DNA of 64,000 nucleotides from Parcubacteria group bacterium (GTDB taxonomy: Bacteria > Patescibacteriota > Minisyncoccia > Moranbacterales > UBA9337): contig JBAZSW010000006.1 of the NCBI GenBank assembly GCA_041662245.1, forward strand, positions 10,442-74,441. Direction: 5' to 3'. Below the pieces are notes generated by a model that searched no databases, was not told the origin of the DNA, and was given only the letters and a program-made list of their open reading frames with translations. Made by a program: the position numbers and the translations under genes. This document shows, piece after piece, positions 2,599 to 45,192 of the stretch (position 1 is the stretch's first letter; every line of letters starts with the position of its first letter).

Positions 2599-3021
2599 TT
2601 ACAATAGTGCTACAATCGTTATTTTTTCTCTTCCGAGAGTCACTGCAATTTTGCATGCTTCCTCCCCTTCTCCCGTAAAAACATCGATTTTCCTCCCCTT
2701 TATTTTTTTACCAGTATCTCTGGCAACACCAATTCCATAACCCGGAATAATTAGCACTGTCCCAAAGGGGATAATCCTAGGATCAACTGCAACAGTGCCT
2801 ATGCTGGGAGTAGTTTTTGATTTAGTAATTTTACCTAAACCATTCATCTCCACATCTTTTCTGTAACTACCTCTGGCAAATTTTTTTTGTTTTTCCAGGG
2901 GCTTATAATAAGCCGTACGAACAACTTTTATTTGCTCAATTTTACCAAGCTCCGCTGCTTCGCTAAGCATGCTAAAACTTAATAACAAAAAACAAGCCAT
3001 CACAATTACAATTAATCTCAA
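2599..3021 (-). CDS. 3D domain (MltA-like) secreted protein
   Basis: Signal peptide. 'TAYY...GTVAVDPRIIPFGTVLIIPGYGIGVARDTG' is typical of the 3D domain. Confidence 0.6.
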   Translation of the reverse strand: MRLIVIVMACFLLLSFSMLSEAAELGKIEQIKVVRTAYYKPLEKQKKFARGSYRKDVEMNGLGKITKSKTTPSIGTVAVDPRIIPFGTVLIIPGYGIGVARDTGKKIKGRKIDVFTGEGEEACKIAVTLGREKITIVALL

Positions 3022-3201
3022 AACAATCCTCCTTTTTATTTTTTTGCAAATAAAAAAACTGGCTCTAATTTATTTAGTTTTCCAGTACTTATAGTGTAAC
3101 ATAAAATAATGTACACTCCCTACCCAATTGATACGTATGAAAAATAATTTTCTTTCAAATACACGCTATGTTATATATTAAATAATTTTAATAATAAATT
3201 A

Positions 3202-3798
3202 TTATTTATCTTTTAAAGTTAAACATTCAAAAGCTTCATGCTCATTAAACTTTTTATTCCATTCCTCAGGACTTCCATAATCAGCAAAATCCTTATACCA
3301 CCCATGAGCTACATTCATCTTGCTGGCAGCCTTAATTGGACACCAATATCTTTCCGTACGGGCTCCGATTTCCACTGCATAAGCGAAAAGCCCATTTACA
3401 TAACTACAATATAAACAATGAACTTTTTGAATAATATTTAAATAATCCAAAAATCTTCTATCATAAACGATAAAATCTTTACGTTTAACCTTGGGAATTT
3501 TATATAATGGAAATGCTGCTGCTTGATACACCGTTATGAAAATATCCAAAATAACCACCGGAAAAATCATAGAATAAATAAAAGGCAAGGAAAATGCATG
3601 TCTAATATTTTTAGGAACAGCATATTTCCAAGCTGGAATACGAAAAGTTCTATTTCTTTCTTTTATTTTTTTTAGAAATATTATTTTTTTCTGAGAAATA
3701 TAGAATCCATATTTTTTAGCTAACCTAGATTGTTCCTTGCGAAGAGCAACATTAAGAGCTTCAATTTTTTCGAGAATTTTTCTAATCTTTGATTCCAT
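3202..3798 (-). CDS. hypothetical protein
   Basis: 198-aa ORF, no recognisable motif. Confidence 0.35.
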   Translation of the reverse strand: MESKIRKILEKIEALNVALRKEQSRLAKKYGFYISQKKIIFLKKIKERNRTFRIPAWKYAVPKNIRHAFSLPFIYSMIFPVVILDIFITVYQAAAFPLYKIPKVKRKDFIVYDRRFLDYLNIIQKVHCLYCSYVNGLFAYAVEIGARTERYWCPIKAASKMNVAHGWYKDFADYGSPEEWNKKFNEHEAFECLTLKDK

Positions 3799-3855
3799 AG
3801 TAAAACTTTATATAATTTAAAAACAAATTTATTGTACCTTAAATAAAAAATTTAA

Positions 3856-6096: not shown

Positions 6097-8658
6097 TTAA
6101 TAAAATTTAAATTTAAATAACTTCAATATCTCAAACCACAATAAACTTGCCACTGAAACTACACTAATTAATAACAATTCTCCGATACTAACTGGAGCCA
6201 TATGAAACAAATTAGAAAAGAAAGGCACATATAAAACAATAAAAAGACAAATAATTGCTCCACCTATGACAAAAAGCAATGCCTTATTTCTAGTCAAAAT
6301 AGTTCTGTACATTGTTTTGTGCCAAGAAAGATTAACTACTATTAAAATAAGATTTGATAAAACAAGTGAAACAAAGGCAAATGAACGAACAGCTTCTTCG
6401 CTTCTATTTGTTTTAATCGCATAAAAAAATAATAAAAAAGTTGTTAATAAAATTCCAAGTCCTTGTAATAAGCTTACCCCAACGGTTCTTTTGTTAAAAA
6501 TGGAATCGTTGACATCTCTTGGTGGTCGATGCATCGTGCTTGATGATTCTTTTTCGGATTCAAAAACTGTCGAGCAAGCAGGATCAATTATTAATTCCAA
6601 AAAAGCAATATGCGCTGGCAAAAGTACCACCGGAAAATTAAAAAATAATGGCAAAAGCGCTACTCCAGCAATTGGAATATGTACAGCCAAAATATAACCC
6701 GAAGCTTTTTTTAAATTAGCATAGATACGTCGTCCCAAACGAACTGCATCCACAATAGAAGAAAAATCATCATTTAAAAGAACTAACGCCGAAGCTTCGC
6801 GGGCTACATCTGTACCCCGTTGCCCCATCGCAATCCCGATATCAGCAGCTTTAAGTGCTGGAGCGTCATTAACTCCATCACCTGTCATTGCCACTATTTC
6901 ATTATTCGATTTAAGTGCATCAATAATTTGTAGTTTTTGTTCCGGCGCCACTCGCGCAAAAATGTTTGTTTTTGTTATTCTTTCTTTGAGCTCATACGGA
7001 TGCATCTTGCTCATTTCATCACCCAAGATAAATAATTCTGGATTTTTAATACCAATTTTTTTAGCAATAAATTGAGCAGTTCCGGGATAATCTCCGGTTA
7101 TCATAATCACCCTAATGCCCGCTTGGTAGGCTTGCGCGATTGCTCCTGAAGCTGTATTTCTCGGCAAGTCAACAAAACCAAAAAATCCAGCAAATTTAAA
7201 ATCAAAGTCGTGCTGATTATTTGGCAATTCACTCTTGGAAAAATTAGCCTTTGCTGCTCCCAATACTCTTAAACCTCTACCAGACATATCATTTACAACT
7301 TTCAACAATTTCTTTTTTTCTTCTTCGGTAATATGACATAAATCCAAAATTGCCTCTGGTGTTCCTTTAGAAGCTATCAAATAATTATTATTTTTTGTTT
7401 TCCAAACATGCGACAGGGCAATTAATTCTTTTGACAAAGGATATTCTTTGATTAGAAATGAATCATCTAATGTTTCTTTTTTATTAATTAAACATCTAGC
7501 GCAAGACTTTTTAAGTTCTTTTTCAATAGGATCAAATGGATCTTGCTGACTGGAAAGTAATCCTATCTCAAGCAAATTGATAAATTTTAATGGCAAATCA
7601 TTATTTTTTGTATTTTTTATTTCGAAAAATTCTTCCTTAGAATAAAGAATATCCAATTTCATTTTATTTACAGTAAGTGTCCCAGTTTTATCAGTACAAA
7701 GAACTGTTGCAGCACCCAACGTTTCAATAGCAGCGGAACGTCTAGTTAAAACCATTTTTTTTGAGATACGCCAAGCTCCTAATGTAAAAAAGATTATTAA
7801 AACCACGGGAAATTCTTCGGGAAGCATCGACATACTTAAAGCTAATCCCGCCAAAAAACCTTCCAAAAAATTGCCTCTTGCAAAATAATAAACAAGAACG
7901 AAAGCGATACAAACAATGATACCAAACGCTCCCATCCAACGTGCCACCTTGGAAATTTCTTTACTCAAACGAGTGTCTTCGCTAGTGATTGATTCTAAGC
8001 TTTTGCCGATTTTCCCAATTTTTGTATTAATTCCCGTAAATAAAACCTTTGCAACGCCTCGGCCACTGACCACCAAAGAACCTGCATACACGAGAGAAAC
8101 ATTCGTAGCGCCTATTTTAATTGATTTATTGTCTTCATTTCTTTCGGATTTTCGAACAGGAACAGATTCTCCAGTCAAAAGAGATTCATCCGCATATAAA
8201 TTTTCACAATTTAAAATTAATGCATCAGCAGCAATGCGGTCACCTTCTCTTATTATCATGATATCCCCACGTACCACTTCGCGACCGGAAATTCTTTTTT
8301 GGTCACCATCTCTTATAACTAAAGCCCTAGGACTGGAAAGATTACGCAAGGCATCCAATGTTTTTTCGGTTTTATGCTCTTGATAAAAAGTTATTCCAAT
8401 AACCACAATAATGAAAGAAATAAGTATCAAAGCGTCTTGCAATTCTCCTATCAAAAAGTAAATTGATCCCGCCGTAACTAGAATGAGTAGCATAGGTTCC
8501 TTAATGACACCTAAAAATATTGAAAAAGCACTCTGTTTTTTTTGTGAAGGAAGTTCATTAAATCCTTCTCGCGCAATAATTTTTTTAGCTTGTTTTTCCG
8601 TGACTCCGCTGTATTCGATTTTGTCCTTCACTGGTTTCATAAAAAAATGTTTTATCAA
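6097..8658 (-). CDS. cation-transporting P-type ATPase (Ca2+/Mg2+ type)
   Basis: 'DKTGTLT' phosphorylation motif, 'TGDGVNDAPALK' hinge motif, about 10 TM helices. Confidence 0.85.
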   Translation of the reverse strand: MIKHFFMKPVKDKIEYSGVTEKQAKKIIAREGFNELPSQKKQSAFSIFLGVIKEPMLLILVTAGSIYFLIGELQDALILISFIIVVIGITFYQEHKTEKTLDALRNLSSPRALVIRDGDQKRISGREVVRGDIMIIREGDRIAADALILNCENLYADESLLTGESVPVRKSERNEDNKSIKIGATNVSLVYAGSLVVSGRGVAKVLFTGINTKIGKIGKSLESITSEDTRLSKEISKVARWMGAFGIIVCIAFVLVYYFARGNFLEGFLAGLALSMSMLPEEFPVVLIIFFTLGAWRISKKMVLTRRSAAIETLGAATVLCTDKTGTLTVNKMKLDILYSKEEFFEIKNTKNNDLPLKFINLLEIGLLSSQQDPFDPIEKELKKSCARCLINKKETLDDSFLIKEYPLSKELIALSHVWKTKNNNYLIASKGTPEAILDLCHITEEEKKKLLKVVNDMSGRGLRVLGAAKANFSKSELPNNQHDFDFKFAGFFGFVDLPRNTASGAIAQAYQAGIRVIMITGDYPGTAQFIAKKIGIKNPELFILGDEMSKMHPYELKERITKTNIFARVAPEQKLQIIDALKSNNEIVAMTGDGVNDAPALKAADIGIAMGQRGTDVAREASALVLLNDDFSSIVDAVRLGRRIYANLKKASGYILAVHIPIAGVALLPLFFNFPVVLLPAHIAFLELIIDPACSTVFESEKESSSTMHRPPRDVNDSIFNKRTVGVSLLQGLGILLTTFLLFFYAIKTNRSEEAVRSFAFVSLVLSNLILIVVNLSWHKTMYRTILTRNKALLFVIGGAIICLFIVLYVPFFSNLFHMAPVSIGELLLISVVSVASLLWFEILKLFKFKFY

Positions 8659-18517: not shown

Positions 18518-18784
18518 TTACTTCTTTATATCTAACTTGCAAAATAATTCTTTAAGTTGTTGCTTTAAAAATCTTTTGCCTTCAGTTGTTTTTAAATATT
18601 TTTCTCTCCTTTCTGCATCTTCTTTTACTGCATAAACTTCATAATGAATAAGTCTAACAGGTAATCTCTTGCTTGTAAACTCTGCTTCACCTCTTTTGTG
18701 TTCAGCTATCCTTCTTTTCAGATCATTAGTAAAGCCAGTATACAATTGATTGTTTTTTAACAATAAAATATAGACATAAAACAT
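18518..18784 (-). CDS. GIY-YIG nuclease domain protein
   Basis: 88 aa. 'YVYILL...YTGFTNDLKRRIAEH' matches the GIY-YIG motif. Sits inside the tRNA cluster. Confidence 0.7.
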   Translation of the reverse strand: MFYVYILLLKNNQLYTGFTNDLKRRIAEHKRGEAEFTSKRLPVRLIHYEVYAVKEDAERREKYLKTTEGKRFLKQQLKELFCKLDIKK

Positions 18785-18820
18785 ATGCAGTCCACTTTAT
18801 TATTATAATATCATTTTGTG

Positions 18821-18893
18821 AGCCACCTGTCGGGCTCGGACCGACGACCTACTGTTTACAAAACAGTTGCTCTACCAACTGAGCTAAGGTGGC
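18821..18893 (-). tRNA. tRNA-Thr (anticodon TGT)
   Basis: Acceptor GCCACCT/AGGTGGC, D-arm GCTC-AGTTGGTA-GAGC, anticodon loop TTTGTAA, T-arm GTCGG-TCCGAGC-CCGAC. Confidence 0.85.
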
Positions 18894-18992
18894 ATAATTA
18901 TTTCTTATATTAAATATTTTAAATAGCATTTTTATCTTCTTCATCTAAGGCTCGCCCTATCATTCGATAGGGCGTCATGTCGGATGACATGG

Positions 18993-19049
18993 CGGACCGA
19001 CGACCTACTGTTTACAAAACAGTTGCTCTACCAACTGAGCTAAGGTGGC
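18993..19049 (-). pseudogene. truncated duplicate of tRNA-Thr(TGT), 5' 57 nt only
   Basis: 57 nt identical to positions 1-57 of the intact tRNA-Thr(TGT) at 18821-18893. The acceptor 3' strand is absent. Followed by two perfect hairpins (18976-18991, 18954-18973). Confidence 0.6.
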
Positions 19050-19136
19050 TTATCTTTAATTTATCTTCAATTCTTTAACCAAATAAAAAACAAACACTTA
19101 TCAATTCTATTCTAAAATTAAATAATTGTAAACAGT

Positions 19137-34755: not shown

Positions 34756-35358
34756 TTATCTATCAAGACAAATCTATAAGCCGGATTCTGTCCCTTAAAA
34801 ATTAATTCAAGGGGGCAATCATTTATCTAGCCATATTGTTACCAATATGATCATTAGCAGCACTCCGCCACTGCATAGCAGTGGAATAATCAAATAACAA
34901 TTTACAAGATACAAACAAATTTCAAATCTCGGAAATCAATATTTCAAACAGGTCTGTTTGAATTATTGGAAACTGATCATTGTTTATTATTTGGAAATCG
35001 CATCTTGATACTTGAAATTTCCAATGCTACGCATTGACGACACGGCCTTGCACCAAGTAGGGTTTACCACGTTCTTCTATTGCTAGAGAACGAGAATTAT
35101 AGCTACAAATTTCATTGCTTCTGCAGAAATGCCAGCAACAAAAAATAAACATTAATTCACTTTTCACGTTTCTCCCATTACTTGTAAGTAATAGGATAGT
35201 ATTGTCTCTGTGGCACTTTCCCGTGATTTATCTCGCGATAAATCAGGTGGGCATTACCCACTACCTATATGTTGATAAATCAACATAGTGTCCGGACTTT
35301 CCTCTCGATATATTTAAAAAATATATCCAGCGATTGCCCGATTTGCCTTGATAGATAA
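34756..35358 (-). ncRNA. rnpB: RNase P RNA (bacterial type A), about 600 nt with expansions
   Basis: Minus-strand 'GAGGAAAGUCCGGACAC' (P4 5' strand, + 35288-35305). 'ACAGAAUCCGGCUUA' (P4 3' strand, + 34776-34790). 'CUAGAUAAAUGAUUG' matches the E. coli 'CUAGAUGAAUGACUG' region. A 19-bp P1 helix pairs the ends (UUAUCUAUCAAGGCAAAUC / GAUUUGUCUUGAUAGAUAA). No genuine ORF in 34.57-35.50 kb. Confidence 0.8.
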
Positions 35359-42093: not shown

Positions 42094-45000
42094 CTATCTT
42101 TTTATAGTAATGACAATTTTTTCTCCATCAATTACAAATTCTTTTTCTAAATCTACTTTCGGGGATTTATTTTCCCTAGAAAGAACTTCGTCGGCCAATG
42201 TTTCTTTGGCAATAATATTTCTTAAATTTTCATCACCAAAAACCTCATTTGCCCCATCATACCATACCTTTATGCGATTGTCGACTTCATAGCCTGCTTG
42301 CTTACGCATTTCTTGTATAAAACGAATAATTTCTCGCGCTTGTCCTTCGAGTTTTAATTCGGGAGTAATTTCTGTATCTAGCTCAATAGCTAAGACATCA
42401 GCTGTTGGCTTATTTGTTTTGCCAGACAAAACATCCTTCATATTCGTTGTTTTAATAATAGCTTTGTGTTCTACTTTATCACCCTCATTTTTCCCAACAA
42501 CATAAGCTATATTTTTAACATTAACTTCTTCTTTTATTATTTCCAAGAGCTCTTCACTTAATCCACAATTCTTGATTCTTAATTCACCCAAAGGTTGTCT
42601 GACTTTTATCCCGCTCTTGGCTCGAAGCTGTAATCCAATGTTTACAATCTCCCGCACCGCTTGCATATCCAAATTTATTTTTTCATCAATCAAACCCTCA
42701 TCTGCCACCGGAAAATCAGCCAAATGCACCGACAATAAGGCCTCCTCCCCTCCCTGAGGGGAGGATTGAGAAGGGGTGGAAATTAAATTTCTAAATATTT
42801 CTTCACTCACAAACGGTGTAAACGGTGCCATCACCTTGGAAAGCTCTACTAAAACATAATACAAAGTCTGATAGGCTTCATTTTTATCACCATCGTTTTC
42901 ACTTTTCCAAAATCTCTTTCGACTGCGACGAATATACCAGTTGGACAGATTATCGACAAATTTTGGCAAAAGCCTCGCGGCTTTATGCAACTCATAATTT
43001 TCCATATGCAGATTAAATTCTCTAATCAACATATGCAATTCTGAAATAAGCCATTTGTCCAATAGGCCATTTAATTTTTGCGGATTAAAATTTTTATCCG
43101 CTTCAAACTTATCAATCTCAGCGTAAAGCACAAAAAAAGAATAGCTGTTCCAAAGCATTCGCATCATTCCACGAGTGATTTCCCCCACTTCATTCTCGAT
43201 AAAATTCATATTTTGAGCCGCCACCACAGGAGAACTCATCAAATAATAACGCACACTATCTGCTCCGTATTTCTCAAACATTTCCATCGGATCAGGATAA
43301 TTTTTTAGTTTCTTAGCCATTTTCTTTCCGTCCTCGGCTAATACGATTCCATTTACTATCACATTTTTAAAAGCGTTGCTATCTTTTATCCCGCTGGCAA
43401 TTACATGCTGATAATAAAACCAAGCTCTGGTCTGATCTATTCCTTCAGCGATAAAATCAGCTGGAAAACTTTCTTCAAATCTATCTTTATTTTCAAATGG
43501 ATAATGTTTTTGAGCATAAGGCATCGAACCACTGTCAAACCAAGTGTCTAGCACATCTGGCACTCTTTTCATTTCTCCTTTACACTTTTCACACTTGAAA
43601 ATAATTTTATCAACCACATGTTTGTGTAGATCATTAATTTTTTCTCCACTAATTTTTTCAAGTTCTGCGATAGAACCGAAAACTTTTTTTTCTCCACACT
43701 CTTCACATACCCAAATCGGCATTACACTAGCCCAAAAACGTTGACGACTGATAGACCAATCTCTCGCCCCCTCCAACCAATTACCAAAACGTCCTTCTTT
43801 TATATTAGCCGGAGACCAATTGATATTTTTGGCTAGCTTTAACATCTTATCTTTTATTTTCGTTACTGCTACAAACCATGAACTCGTCGCATAATTTATC
43901 AATGGAGTATCACAACGCCAACAATGCGGATAGCTGTGCTCAAATTTTTCTTTATGAAACAAATTTCCATTTTTCGCTAGATATTTAATAATTTCTACGT
44001 CAGTAGCTTGTGGGTTTTCAATCGGCTTTACATTCAACCCTGCTAACTCTCCCATCTCATCCTTAAAACTTCCATCCATTGCCACATGTTGTATAAAGGG
44101 AAGCTTTTTTTCTTTCCCTAATTTCATATCATCTTCACCAAAAGCCGGTGCAATGTGAACCACTCCCGTTCCTTCATCTGTTGTCACAAAATCACCAGCA
44201 TAAATTTTCCAACCATTTTCCCTATTTTCCAAGTTTTCATCTTTACTATAAAAATCAAAAAGCGGTTTGTATTTTTTACCAACTAAATCTTTACCCTTAA
44301 ATTCTTCAATAATTTTATATTCACTATCCTTAAAAACATCTGTCAATCTATCCTTAGCTAAAATAAATCTCACTAGCTTACCCACACCCTCATCTTTCTT
44401 TTCTATTTTTACATAATTAATATTTTCACCAACTGCAAGTGCCACGTTTCCTGGTAAAGTCCAAGGTGTTGTCGTCCAAGCTAAAATAGAGGTCTTGACC
44501 TCCCCTCCTCCCTGAGGAGGGGATTGAGGAGTGGTGTCTTCGCCATTGTCAGAAATAAATTCAAACTCTGCGATCACACTCAAATCCTTCACATCCTTAT
44601 ATCCTTCGGAAACTTCTTGCTGCGAAAGCGTGGTTTCACAACGCGGACAAATATGCATAGAGCGATAATCTTGGTAAATTAAATCCTTATCCCATAATTC
44701 TTTAAAAACCCACCAAACACTCTCCATGTAATCTTTATCCATAGTGCGATAAGCATTTTTCATATCTGCCCAGCGTCCCAACCTTGGAATAAGTCGCTCC
44801 CATTCATCTACATATGCCAAAACTTTGCTACGACAAAGTTCATTAAATTTTTCTACACCCATCACTTCAATATCTTTTTTCTTCTTGCTTCCCAATTCTT
44901 TTTCTACAATGTTTTCAATTGGCAAACCATGACAATCCCAACCCCATTTACGCTGCACATAGAACCCACGCATCGTCCAATATCTCGGCACTACATCTTT

Positions 45001-45192
45001 CAAAAGACTCCCCACGATATGTCCATAATGAGGAGTGCCTGTCGCGAAAGGAGGTCCATCATAAAAAGTATATTCTTTGGCACCTTTGCGATTTTCCATT
45101 GATTTTTCAAATATTTTATTTTCATTCCAAAAATCGATGATATTTTTTTCCATCTCCGGAAACTTTTGATTTGATTCAACTTTCTTAAACAT
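42094..45192 (-). CDS. ileS: isoleucine--tRNA ligase
   Basis: 1032 aa. HIGH-type motif 'PHYGH', KMSKS-like 'KMAKKL', editing domain, zinc knuckles 'CPRCETTL' and 'CWRCDTPL'. Confidence 0.9.
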   Translation of the reverse strand: MFKKVESNQKFPEMEKNIIDFWNENKIFEKSMENRKGAKEYTFYDGPPFATGTPHYGHIVGSLLKDVVPRYWTMRGFYVQRKWGWDCHGLPIENIVEKELGSKKKKDIEVMGVEKFNELCRSKVLAYVDEWERLIPRLGRWADMKNAYRTMDKDYMESVWWVFKELWDKDLIYQDYRSMHICPRCETTLSQQEVSEGYKDVKDLSVIAEFEFISDNGEDTTPQSPPQGGGEVKTSILAWTTTPWTLPGNVALAVGENINYVKIEKKDEGVGKLVRFILAKDRLTDVFKDSEYKIIEEFKGKDLVGKKYKPLFDFYSKDENLENRENGWKIYAGDFVTTDEGTGVVHIAPAFGEDDMKLGKEKKLPFIQHVAMDGSFKDEMGELAGLNVKPIENPQATDVEIIKYLAKNGNLFHKEKFEHSYPHCWRCDTPLINYATSSWFVAVTKIKDKMLKLAKNINWSPANIKEGRFGNWLEGARDWSISRQRFWASVMPIWVCEECGEKKVFGSIAELEKISGEKINDLHKHVVDKIIFKCEKCKGEMKRVPDVLDTWFDSGSMPYAQKHYPFENKDRFEESFPADFIAEGIDQTRAWFYYQHVIASGIKDSNAFKNVIVNGIVLAEDGKKMAKKLKNYPDPMEMFEKYGADSVRYYLMSSPVVAAQNMNFIENEVGEITRGMMRMLWNSYSFFVLYAEIDKFEADKNFNPQKLNGLLDKWLISELHMLIREFNLHMENYELHKAARLLPKFVDNLSNWYIRRSRKRFWKSENDGDKNEAYQTLYYVLVELSKVMAPFTPFVSEEIFRNLISTPSQSSPQGGEEALLSVHLADFPVADEGLIDEKINLDMQAVREIVNIGLQLRAKSGIKVRQPLGELRIKNCGLSEELLEIIKEEVNVKNIAYVVGKNEGDKVEHKAIIKTTNMKDVLSGKTNKPTADVLAIELDTEITPELKLEGQAREIIRFIQEMRKQAGYEVDNRIKVWYDGANEVFGDENLRNIIAKETLADEVLSRENKSPKVDLEKEFVIDGEKIVITIKR

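Follow-up and report, generated by a model that had tools for sequence, protein, structure and literature searches.

Fragments of transfer RNA (tRNA) genes at the att sites of integrating elements normally duplicate the 3′ part of the tRNA, and split or permuted tRNA genes occur in Nanoarchaeum, Caldivirga, and some algae. Small palindromic elements include the bacterial REP/REPIN sequences and the Rickettsia palindromic elements. Fragments of tRNA genes are known as by-products of element integration and of CRISPR spacer uptake (van der Gulik et al. 2023, RNA Biol 20:48, PMC9897764). Small GC-rich palindromic insertion elements have been described in AT-rich mitochondrial genomes as GC clusters (PMC4478555), along with double-hairpin elements in Allomyces mitochondria and repetitive hairpin-forming elements in sponge mitochondria (PMC2800124). 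Here we present a stretch of 64,000 nucleotides (nt) from a Parcubacteria group bacterium (contig JBAZSW010000006.1; the whole stretch is referred to as the window), in which a truncated copy of the tRNA-Thr(UGU) gene precedes the complete gene on the minus strand and is interrupted by a GC-rich double hairpin.

The truncated copy is probably a pseudogene: a 5′ remnant, no longer functional, of the single-copy tRNA-Thr(UGU) gene, and a relic of duplication which has been kept similar to its parent by unequal exchange and which carries a small palindromic insertion element. Exact-match searches assign the window to Candidatus Moranbacteria/Moraniibacteriota within Patescibacteria, and the host DNA is AT-rich (genome 33% GC). 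In the literature searched, no paper was found that describes such remnants or hairpin elements in bacteria of the candidate phyla radiation (CPR).

Structure of the remnant

Read from 19049 to 18993, the remnant agrees with nt 1-57 of the intact tRNA-Thr(UGU) in every position, as had been recognized in the first-pass annotation of this DNA. It covers the acceptor 5′ strand, the D arm, the anticodon arm, the variable loop, the T-stem 5′ strand, and the first four bases of the T loop, and for an exact repeat of 57 nt chance is excluded. The truncated copy and its intact paralogue are adjacent and lie on the same strand, with 99 nt between the end of the 57-nt copy and the start of the live gene. 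No open reading frame (ORF) of at least 40 amino acids (aa) is present within these 99 nt. Coordinates of all segments are listed in Table 1.

The two hairpins that the same annotation placed behind the fragment are seen at those positions both in the sequence and in the centroid fold. They do come after nt 57, but the notion that they trail a broken end needs to be modified. Past the hairpins tRNA homology resumes with AGCC, corresponding to nt 58-61 and representing the last recognizable bases of the remnant, so the hairpins constitute a 40-nt insertion inside the T loop and not a tail added after a clean break.

The acceptor 3′ strand was correctly reported as missing. In the whole 64 kb, the 16-nt 3′ part GAGCCCGACAGGTGGC (up to 3 mismatches) matches the live gene only, and there is no other 3′ end containing AGGTGGC. 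The remnant accordingly does not form the complete cloverleaf of a functional tRNA gene, having nothing to pair with nt 1-7. The Rfam tRNA model nevertheless matches it at 19043 to 18978 with 37.7 bits (threshold 29), in model positions 7-64 only, and this above-threshold score makes use of CCGAC inside hairpin 1 as the T-stem 3′ strand. Searching Rfam at E ≤ 10 with the hairpins and the leader returned the partial tRNA match only, and no known RNA family.

The Rfam score, together with the intact D and anticodon arms, might suggest that the fragment is one half of a tRNA, split, permuted, or containing an intron, from which a functional tRNA-Thr is made by joining or splicing; a remnant of a split or permuted tRNA had been among the possibilities raised in the first-pass annotation. 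We give it next to no credence. Besides the lack of an acceptor 3′ strand in the window, none was seen in the relatives' loci that were read, and past the insert only AGCC remains before AT-rich DNA. ARAGORN calls no tRNA at the remnant in default mode, with introns of up to 120 nt, or with lowered thresholds, and the complete but unusual tRNA that would have refuted the first-pass reading was thus not folded. The fragment is redundant because of the identical complete gene 99 nt away, and further decay and extra insertions are observed in the same fragment among relatives. The archaeal splicing endonuclease is not known from bacteria.

An exact repeat of 57 nt can confuse short-read assemblers, and a repeat-induced misjoin in a metagenome-assembled contig has to be considered for this reason. 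An independent Logan assembly of the same strain (L065) reproduces the junction between leader and remnant, and its contig ends inside the repeat, which is the expected behavior at a genuine repeat. The same architecture was recovered by independent assemblies of other species and samples, in L046 (NCBI), in L063 and L057 (metagenome collection), and in L096 and L098 (ENA). In addition, the sequence is unique on both sides of the remnant, at the leader junction confirmed by L065 and in the hairpin element, and a misjoin would not produce a 40-nt palindromic insert. An assembly artefact is therefore very unlikely.

Table 1. Features of the tRNA-Thr(UGU) locus in the window.
Feature	Position	Strand	Basis or remark
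tRNA-Thr(UGU) remnant, nt 1-57	18993 to 19049	-	57/57 identical to the live gene (repeat search and separate scan)
Double-hairpin insertion, 40 nt, GC-rich, between tRNA G57 and A58	18953 to 18992	-	sequence and fold
Hairpin 1, CATGTC-ATCC-GACATG	18991 to 18976	-	sequence
Hairpin 2, GCCCTATC-GAAT-GATAGGGC	18973 to 18954	-	sequence
AGCC, tRNA nt 58-61	18949 to 18952	-	direct sequence reading
AT-rich spacer, 55 nt, remnant to live tRNA	18894 to 18948	-	sequence
Live tRNA-Thr(UGU)	18820 to 18893	-	ARAGORN; Rfam 68.1 bits, full length
Leader, promoter to remnant	19050 to 19103	-	first ~20 nt kept in relatives; last ~19-34 nt lineage-specific
Sigma-70-type promoter match of the tRNA operon, TTTACA-17 nt-TAGAAT	19104 to 19132	-	regional best, 10/12
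GIY-YIG ORF, 88 aa, between tRNA-Thr and tRNA-Tyr	18518 to 18784	-	Pfam PF01541, 4.8e-16
tRNA-Tyr	18512 to 18429	-	ARAGORN
tRNA-Thr(GGU)	18280 to 18207	-	ARAGORN
tRNA-Trp	17208 to 17137	-	ARAGORN

Remnants in related genomes

Syntenic loci were gathered with the exact L33 protein, with the tRNA core pattern in species-representative genomes, with the 3′ part of the live tRNA in JGI metagenomes, and with homologues of the TPR protein, and the comparison comprises about 20 Moranbacteria loci. The region between the promoter and the tRNA varies strongly among them. A 5′ remnant of this tRNA lies between the same promoter and the live gene in at least 10 species of Moranbacteria. Every upstream tRNA-Thr(UGU) remnant in these loci begins at tRNA nt 1, while the ends differ (at about nt 25, 36, 47, and 62), and different GC hairpins occupy the D or the T loop.

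Remnants of the window type are found in L046, L063, L096-L099, and L057. They consist of nt 1-57, the same 40-nt insert, and then AGCCC (kept in L046) or AGC (in L057), followed by a weakly alignable spacer. They also have a 20-nt hairpin, CCTGCC-TRCC-GGCAGG, in the D loop. Other forms are built of nt 1-14, the double hairpin in reverse, and nt 15-25 (L054); of nt 1-14, TCCGCCAGCTGGCGGA, and nt 18-36 (L044); of nt 1-14, nested hairpins, and a decayed stretch to about nt 47 (L026 and L070); and of nt 1-17, TCAGCCAGAGGCCGA, and a decayed stretch (L022, L061, L068, L002, and L069). Both these and other CPR loci also contain remnants of tRNA-Tyr, tRNA-Thr(GGU), and tRNA-Trp, whose loops frequently bear GC hairpins, and several downstream remnants in CPR loci extend to the tRNA 3′ end.

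No remnant is present in L001/L014/L035/L053/L064, in L039/L066, in L100, and in the nearest relative, represented by three independent assemblies (L055, L072, and L074) with 83-86% nucleotide identity in flanking genes. Absence of the fragment in the nearest relative and in several other species weakens the suggestion, also made in the first-pass annotation, that it could be a duplicated processing signal.

A phage origin was considered and rejected. Neither the double hairpin nor the tRNA core is present in IMG/VR viral contigs, and 21 IMG/VR matches to a 16-mer from the block of the L022 type all occur in unrelated contexts.

The double-hairpin element

The element in the window reads CCATGTC-ATCC-GACATGA-CG-CCCTATC-GAAT-GATAGGG-CG. 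CG dinucleotides shared between the stems, beginning with tRNA C56-G57, bring both stems to nine pairs; hairpin 1 has eight Watson-Crick pairs and one C·A mismatch, and hairpin 2 is paired in all nine positions. Both hairpins are present in the RNA centroid fold (z = -3.1 compared to shuffles), and neither hairpin sequence appeared in 100 shuffles. GC-rich perfect hairpins are rare, with about 10 places in the window. No further copies of the two hairpins exist in the 64 kb, nor does the double hairpin occur outside tRNA-Thr remnants in about 470 kb of fetched loci; within this scope the element, present once in 64 kb, does not have many copies per genome. The hairpins were also evaluated as an intrinsic terminator and rejected in this role, as the scan gives no site at 18953-18992; the sequence that comes after hairpin 2 is GAGCCTTAGATG.

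In L046, L063, and L096-L099 the element sits in sense orientation at the same T-loop site (57/58) and is identical in 38 of 40 positions, and in L057 it occupies the same site in a partly deleted form. In L054 it is inserted in reverse orientation at nt 14/15, in the D loop, with two compensatory changes in the stems, the outer stem of hairpin 1 being altered from CAT/ATG to CCC/GGG. These D-loop and T-loop sites are found without the element in remnants or live genes of L044, L026, and L022.

Alignment and direct reading of these copies give the layout [YG] arm-ATCC-arm′ [CR] arm-GRAT-arm′ [YG], followed by AGC. The window and L046 have the dinucleotides CG, CG, and CG at the target TC-CG/AGC of the T loop (the slash before AGC marks the insertion point), and the antisense strand of L054 has TG, CA, and TG at the target AC-TG/AGC, the complement of GCTCAG in the D arm. 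Both insertions thus have in common the target CYG/AGC, a flanking repeat of 2 nt (CG or TG), and a central dinucleotide complementary to this repeat. Deduced from two independent insertions, this combination is proposed as a lead, not as a rule. In L058, from another genus, a different double hairpin is located at the same CTG/AGC site in a tRNA-Thr(GGU) remnant.

The hexamer CYGAGC occurs 21 times in the window, 15 times in long ORFs and 5 times in tRNA genes or the remnant. Since most occurrences fall into ORFs and tRNA genes, the remnant is about the sole harmless target, and this would account for the fact that remnants are the only place where the element has been seen. An agent that moves the element is presumed; no cognate transposase was identified, the ORFs of the window not having been screened systematically.

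Origin and maintenance of the remnant

If a tandem duplication breaks once in the tRNA and once in its flank, the observed polarity follows and one complete gene always remains. In agreement with this, L002 (p ~ 0.001) and L054 (p ~ 0.013) have one copy of the leader ahead of the remnant and another ahead of the live gene. Within one species, strains whose flanking TPR protein (P0032) is identical carry either one remnant (L046, L063, L096, and L098) or two identical remnants in tandem (L097). One more strain with this protein, L099, has a remnant and a chimera, in which the live-gene sequence through nt 57 is joined to the hairpin element, as in the window. Such copy-number variants and the chimera are the expected reciprocal products of unequal crossing-over between a remnant and the live gene.

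These observations can be combined into a model of three steps. A partial tandem duplication, or an unequal exchange, with breakpoints in the tRNA (near nt 61/62) and in the upstream flank would have generated the truncated copy. The dead copy would then have gained the 40-nt GC-rich double-hairpin element in its T loop, at CCG/AGC. Recurrent unequal crossing-over with the live gene would homogenize the part derived from the tRNA, alter the number of remnants, and sometimes delete them, while the distal part of the remnant would be left to decay. We infer this order of events, as well as the transcription of the remnant and its lack of function.

With regard to transcription, the motif GTTTACAATT...TAGAAT is kept at the same place in about 15 Moranbacteria loci, and TTTACA-17-TAGAAT is predicted, from its sequence, to act as the promoter of the Thr-Tyr-Thr tRNA operon. 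Because this match lies upstream, at a conserved place, the remnant is positioned inside the predicted leader of the operon. It would be transcribed within a leader of about 200 nt and lost once RNase P has released the 5′ end of the live tRNA. The leaders of L072 and L055 share ...tttggttaaagaatt and differ after it.

The first-pass annotation had suggested a scar of recombination or integration. Recombination is what the truncated tandem copy here and the copy-number variants and chimeras in relatives point to, whereas integration of the integrase type is not supported, given that the copies are only 99 nt apart in the window and that no ORF lies between them here or in any relative examined. 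The accompanying remark that duplication of a 5′ half is atypical for integrases was right. A simple remnant of tandem duplication in relatives, the outcome named there as contrary to its own interpretation, is essentially what the relatives show, except that the two hairpins are a separately inserted element.

Several observations weigh against the duplication and exchange scenario. In the allele of the window the duplicated leader is undetectable: similarity between the leader upstream of the remnant and the spacer is not significant (p = 0.56), and a common 9-mer, GAAGATAAA, is compatible with chance, so the duplication step is derived from relatives. The repeats in L097 and L099 are in scaffolds with N gaps beside them. 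The junction in the nearest relative, ...aaagaatt/tagcatac/tRNA, is not a simple homologous deletion product of the arrangement in the window. The double hairpin appears to be a separate and mobile element, and the case for mobility is thin, with two independent insertion sites and a single copy in 64 kb; another GC-rich palindrome, inserted twice in ileS of the same genome (see below), also speaks for it.

Conservation of the blocks is a further difficulty. The window and L046 are only 74% identical in rpsB, tsf, and the PSP1 gene, yet they have the element at the same site, with the similarity given above, and their remnants end within one base of each other (nt 61 and nt 62); the adjacent spacer is about 74% identical and then becomes unalignable. 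Likewise, L022, L061, and L068 have another remnant block, of 48 nt (GCCACCTTAGCTCAGTTTCAGCCAGAGGCCGATAAAGTCCAAGCTTAA), at 100% identity, with genes 77-80% identical and both flanks unalignable; the remnants of L002 and L069 are of the same type. Crossing-over accounts only for the parts derived from the tRNA, and the rest needs selection, self-maintenance of the palindrome, or lateral spread.

Block conservation past the neutral expectation, of the double hairpin between genomes with housekeeping genes 74% identical and of the L022-type block (48/48) in three genomes, is the principal argument for a leader module kept by selection. According to this alternative, the tRNA 5′ fragment and the GC hairpins might serve in the pre-tRNA leader as an element of processing or stability. 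Or they might work as a decoy in the DNA itself, attracting tRNA-targeting palindromic elements or nucleases that would otherwise strike the single essential gene. It also draws on the distribution of hairpin insertions at the Thr(UGU) locus, all in remnants and none in live genes, and on the constant position of the module within the predicted transcript. However, the module is missing in the three assemblies of the nearest relative, L001, L039/L066, and L100, and its copy number is one or two within a single species. No structure is common to all forms, as breakpoints are at nt 25, 36, 47, or 62 and hairpins are in the D loop, the T loop, or both, and the 5′ part is decaying in L069 (3/17 mismatches), L057 (2/21), and L002 (1/17). 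Direct reading of the alignment further shows that two single-base stem variants favor opposite strands, giving no consistent signal at the RNA level. We regard a selected module as possible but doubtful.

A related and equally tentative idea concerns the hairpin element itself. It may be an undescribed, ultra-small mobile element of CPR bacteria that picks CYG/AGC partly by base pairing between its central dinucleotide and the 2-nt repeat, and dead tRNA fragments in the operon leader may be retained as landing pads or decoys that spare single-copy essential tRNA genes. Retention of this kind could explain why blocks of remnant and hairpin are better conserved than housekeeping genes.

Gene neighborhood and the GIY-YIG gene

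On the minus strand, rpsB, tsf, a PSP1-domain gene, a gene for a TPR protein of 248 aa, the remnant, and tRNA-Thr(UGU) are followed by the 88-aa GIY-YIG ORF, tRNA-Tyr, tRNA-Thr(GGU), rpmG, a 220-aa HTH ORF, tRNA-Trp, and a Fic gene. Four tRNA genes are called by ARAGORN, in the transcription order Thr(UGU), Tyr, Thr(GGU), and Trp (Table 1). The sequence of the live tRNA-Thr(UGU) is identical across all Moranbacteria loci examined (more than 10 species). Its T loop (18834-18840) is UCCGAGC and so has C in place of the nearly universal U (pseudouridine 55) at position 55; the T-loop start UCCGA is also found in many Patescibacteria, including 41 genome loci.

The GIY-YIG ORF, situated 5 nt ahead of tRNA-Tyr, behaves as a recently mobile cassette beside tRNA-Thr(UGU). 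It is about 97% identical between the window and L072, compared to 83-86% in flanking genes, and its presence is polymorphic within the species of L046. The locus is a hot spot of mobile DNA, and this raises the question of whether a GIY-YIG cassette or another small integrative element was inserted into the tRNA gene together with its own copy of the tRNA 5′ part; its subsequent deletion would have left behind a short spacer between the host 5′ part and the restored gene. Comparable arrangements exist at tRNA-Trp. In L100 (~2900-3168), a tRNA-Trp 5′ fragment with a hairpin in the anticodon arm is directly followed by a GIY-YIG gene, inside which the fetched locus ends; in L008 (300-730), a GIY-YIG gene lies between GC hairpins upstream of intact tRNA-Trp; and in L045 (near 3400-3830), intact tRNA-Trp, GIY-YIG, hairpins, and a 3′ remnant succeed each other. 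These three arrangements suggest GIY-YIG cassettes that insert into tRNA-Trp while restoring it. In L001, cassettes are bounded by tRNA-Trp 3′ remnants.

At the Thr(UGU) locus the evidence points away from this explanation, which we consider unlikely. In all genomes examined, the interval from the tRNA-Thr(UGU) 5′ remnant to the live gene is free of cassettes and ORFs, the spacer of the window has no significant similarity to the GIY-YIG cassette (p = 0.14-0.57), and L002 and L054 show plain duplication of the leader. The GIY-YIG gene and the remnant moreover occur independently, and a link between the two was rejected: the gene is found without a remnant in L055/L072/L074, the remnant without the gene in L046, L054, and L057, and both are present in L096/L098. 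Behind the GIY-YIG gene, a tRNA-Thr 3′ remnant is marginal in L096-L099 (p = 0.04-0.11), and none is present behind the gene in the window.

The tRNA-Trp region of L001 (6289-10400; also in L003, L004, and L053) contains three successive cassettes after tRNA-Trp, each opening with a tRNA-Trp 3′ remnant and then atctttcgctaaaCCTGCCTGCCGGCAGG. This region looks like an array of small integrated cassettes.

Other palindromic inserts

Two in-frame copies of another GC-rich palindromic element are located in the ileS ORF (42094-45192), at 42742-42770 and 44500-44528 on the minus strand. The element (CTCAATCCYCYCCTCAGGGAGGRGRGGAG) has a 10-pair stem, and its two copies encode TTPQSPPQGGGEV and TPSQSSPQGGEEA. 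Aligned with the best solved IleRS (8c8u), both inserts fall opposite gaps, and most Moranbacteria orthologues lack them as well. In other ileS orthologues, these two sites hold either the same inserts or different ones, a pattern reminiscent of the Rickettsia palindromic elements.

A match to class A bacterial RNase P RNA on the minus strand (34761-35349) is 589 nt long for a model of 367 positions, and must therefore hold large insertions. A GC hairpin, CCACTGCATAGCAGTGG, is found inside this match at 34868-34884.

Elsewhere among the CPR loci, an intact tRNA (Tyr, Trp, or Thr-GGU) is separated from its own 3′ remnant by a structured insert of roughly 125-165 nt (L047 ~1900-2100, L050 ~1700-1880, L057 ~6660-6840, L018 ~350-520, L021 ~1650-1800, and L031 ~7630-7780). 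Shared GC-rich motifs (ggggtcggg... and gagcgaagcgacg) recur in this insert, along with a hairpin resembling a terminator and a copy of the T arm in inverted orientation. A comparison with Rfam at E ≤ 0.1 gave no family match for this insert.

Implications and comparison with known systems

For annotation, the remnant is a tRNA-like match above the Rfam threshold that is no gene, and similar remnants beside tRNA-Thr, -Tyr, and -Trp genes in many Patescibacteria could inflate tRNA counts. In these reduced, AT-rich genomes, the single-copy tRNA genes seem to be particularly prone to partial duplication, to unequal exchange, and to colonization by tiny GC-rich palindromes. Should the blocks of remnant and hairpin turn out to be under selection, they would amount to a novel class of element in pre-tRNA leaders or to a decoy against mobile DNA that targets tRNAs.

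Like split and permuted tRNA genes, the remnant encodes the 5′ portion of a tRNA alone, followed by GC-rich structured sequence. Unlike them, it occurs in a bacterium, lacks a 3′ half, has hairpins that pair with themselves and not with a partner, and adjoins a complete gene of identical sequence.

With att-site fragments (PMC9897764) the remnant has in common that it is a partial copy in direct orientation near a complete gene and that it exceeds the threshold of the tRNA covariance model without being a gene. Those fragments flank elements of 9-23 kb, whereas here the copies are 99 nt apart without an ORF, and no relative has an integrase-borne element between them. The duplicated part also differs, being the 5′ part of the tRNA (nt 1-57, and 58-61).

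In contrast to the mitochondrial and REP types of palindromic elements, the 40-nt element is present in one copy in 64 kb, has so far been found only inside tRNA-Thr remnants, and has an apparent target, CYG/AGC. It resembles these elements in being GC-rich in a genome of 33% GC, in its two adjacent hairpins, in its insertion at differing sites and in both orientations into otherwise recognizable sequence, and in stem changes that preserve pairing.

Compared with tandem gene duplicates that evolve in concert through unequal crossing-over or gene conversion, the locus differs in that one partner is a dead fragment, 57 nt of a 74-nt gene, and in that the duplicated flank is no longer recognizable in the allele of the window. 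In other respects the locus follows their pattern: the copies are arranged head-to-tail on the same strand, the shared part is identical, and both copy-number variants (L097, with two remnants) and a chimera of live gene and remnant (L099) are found within a single related species.

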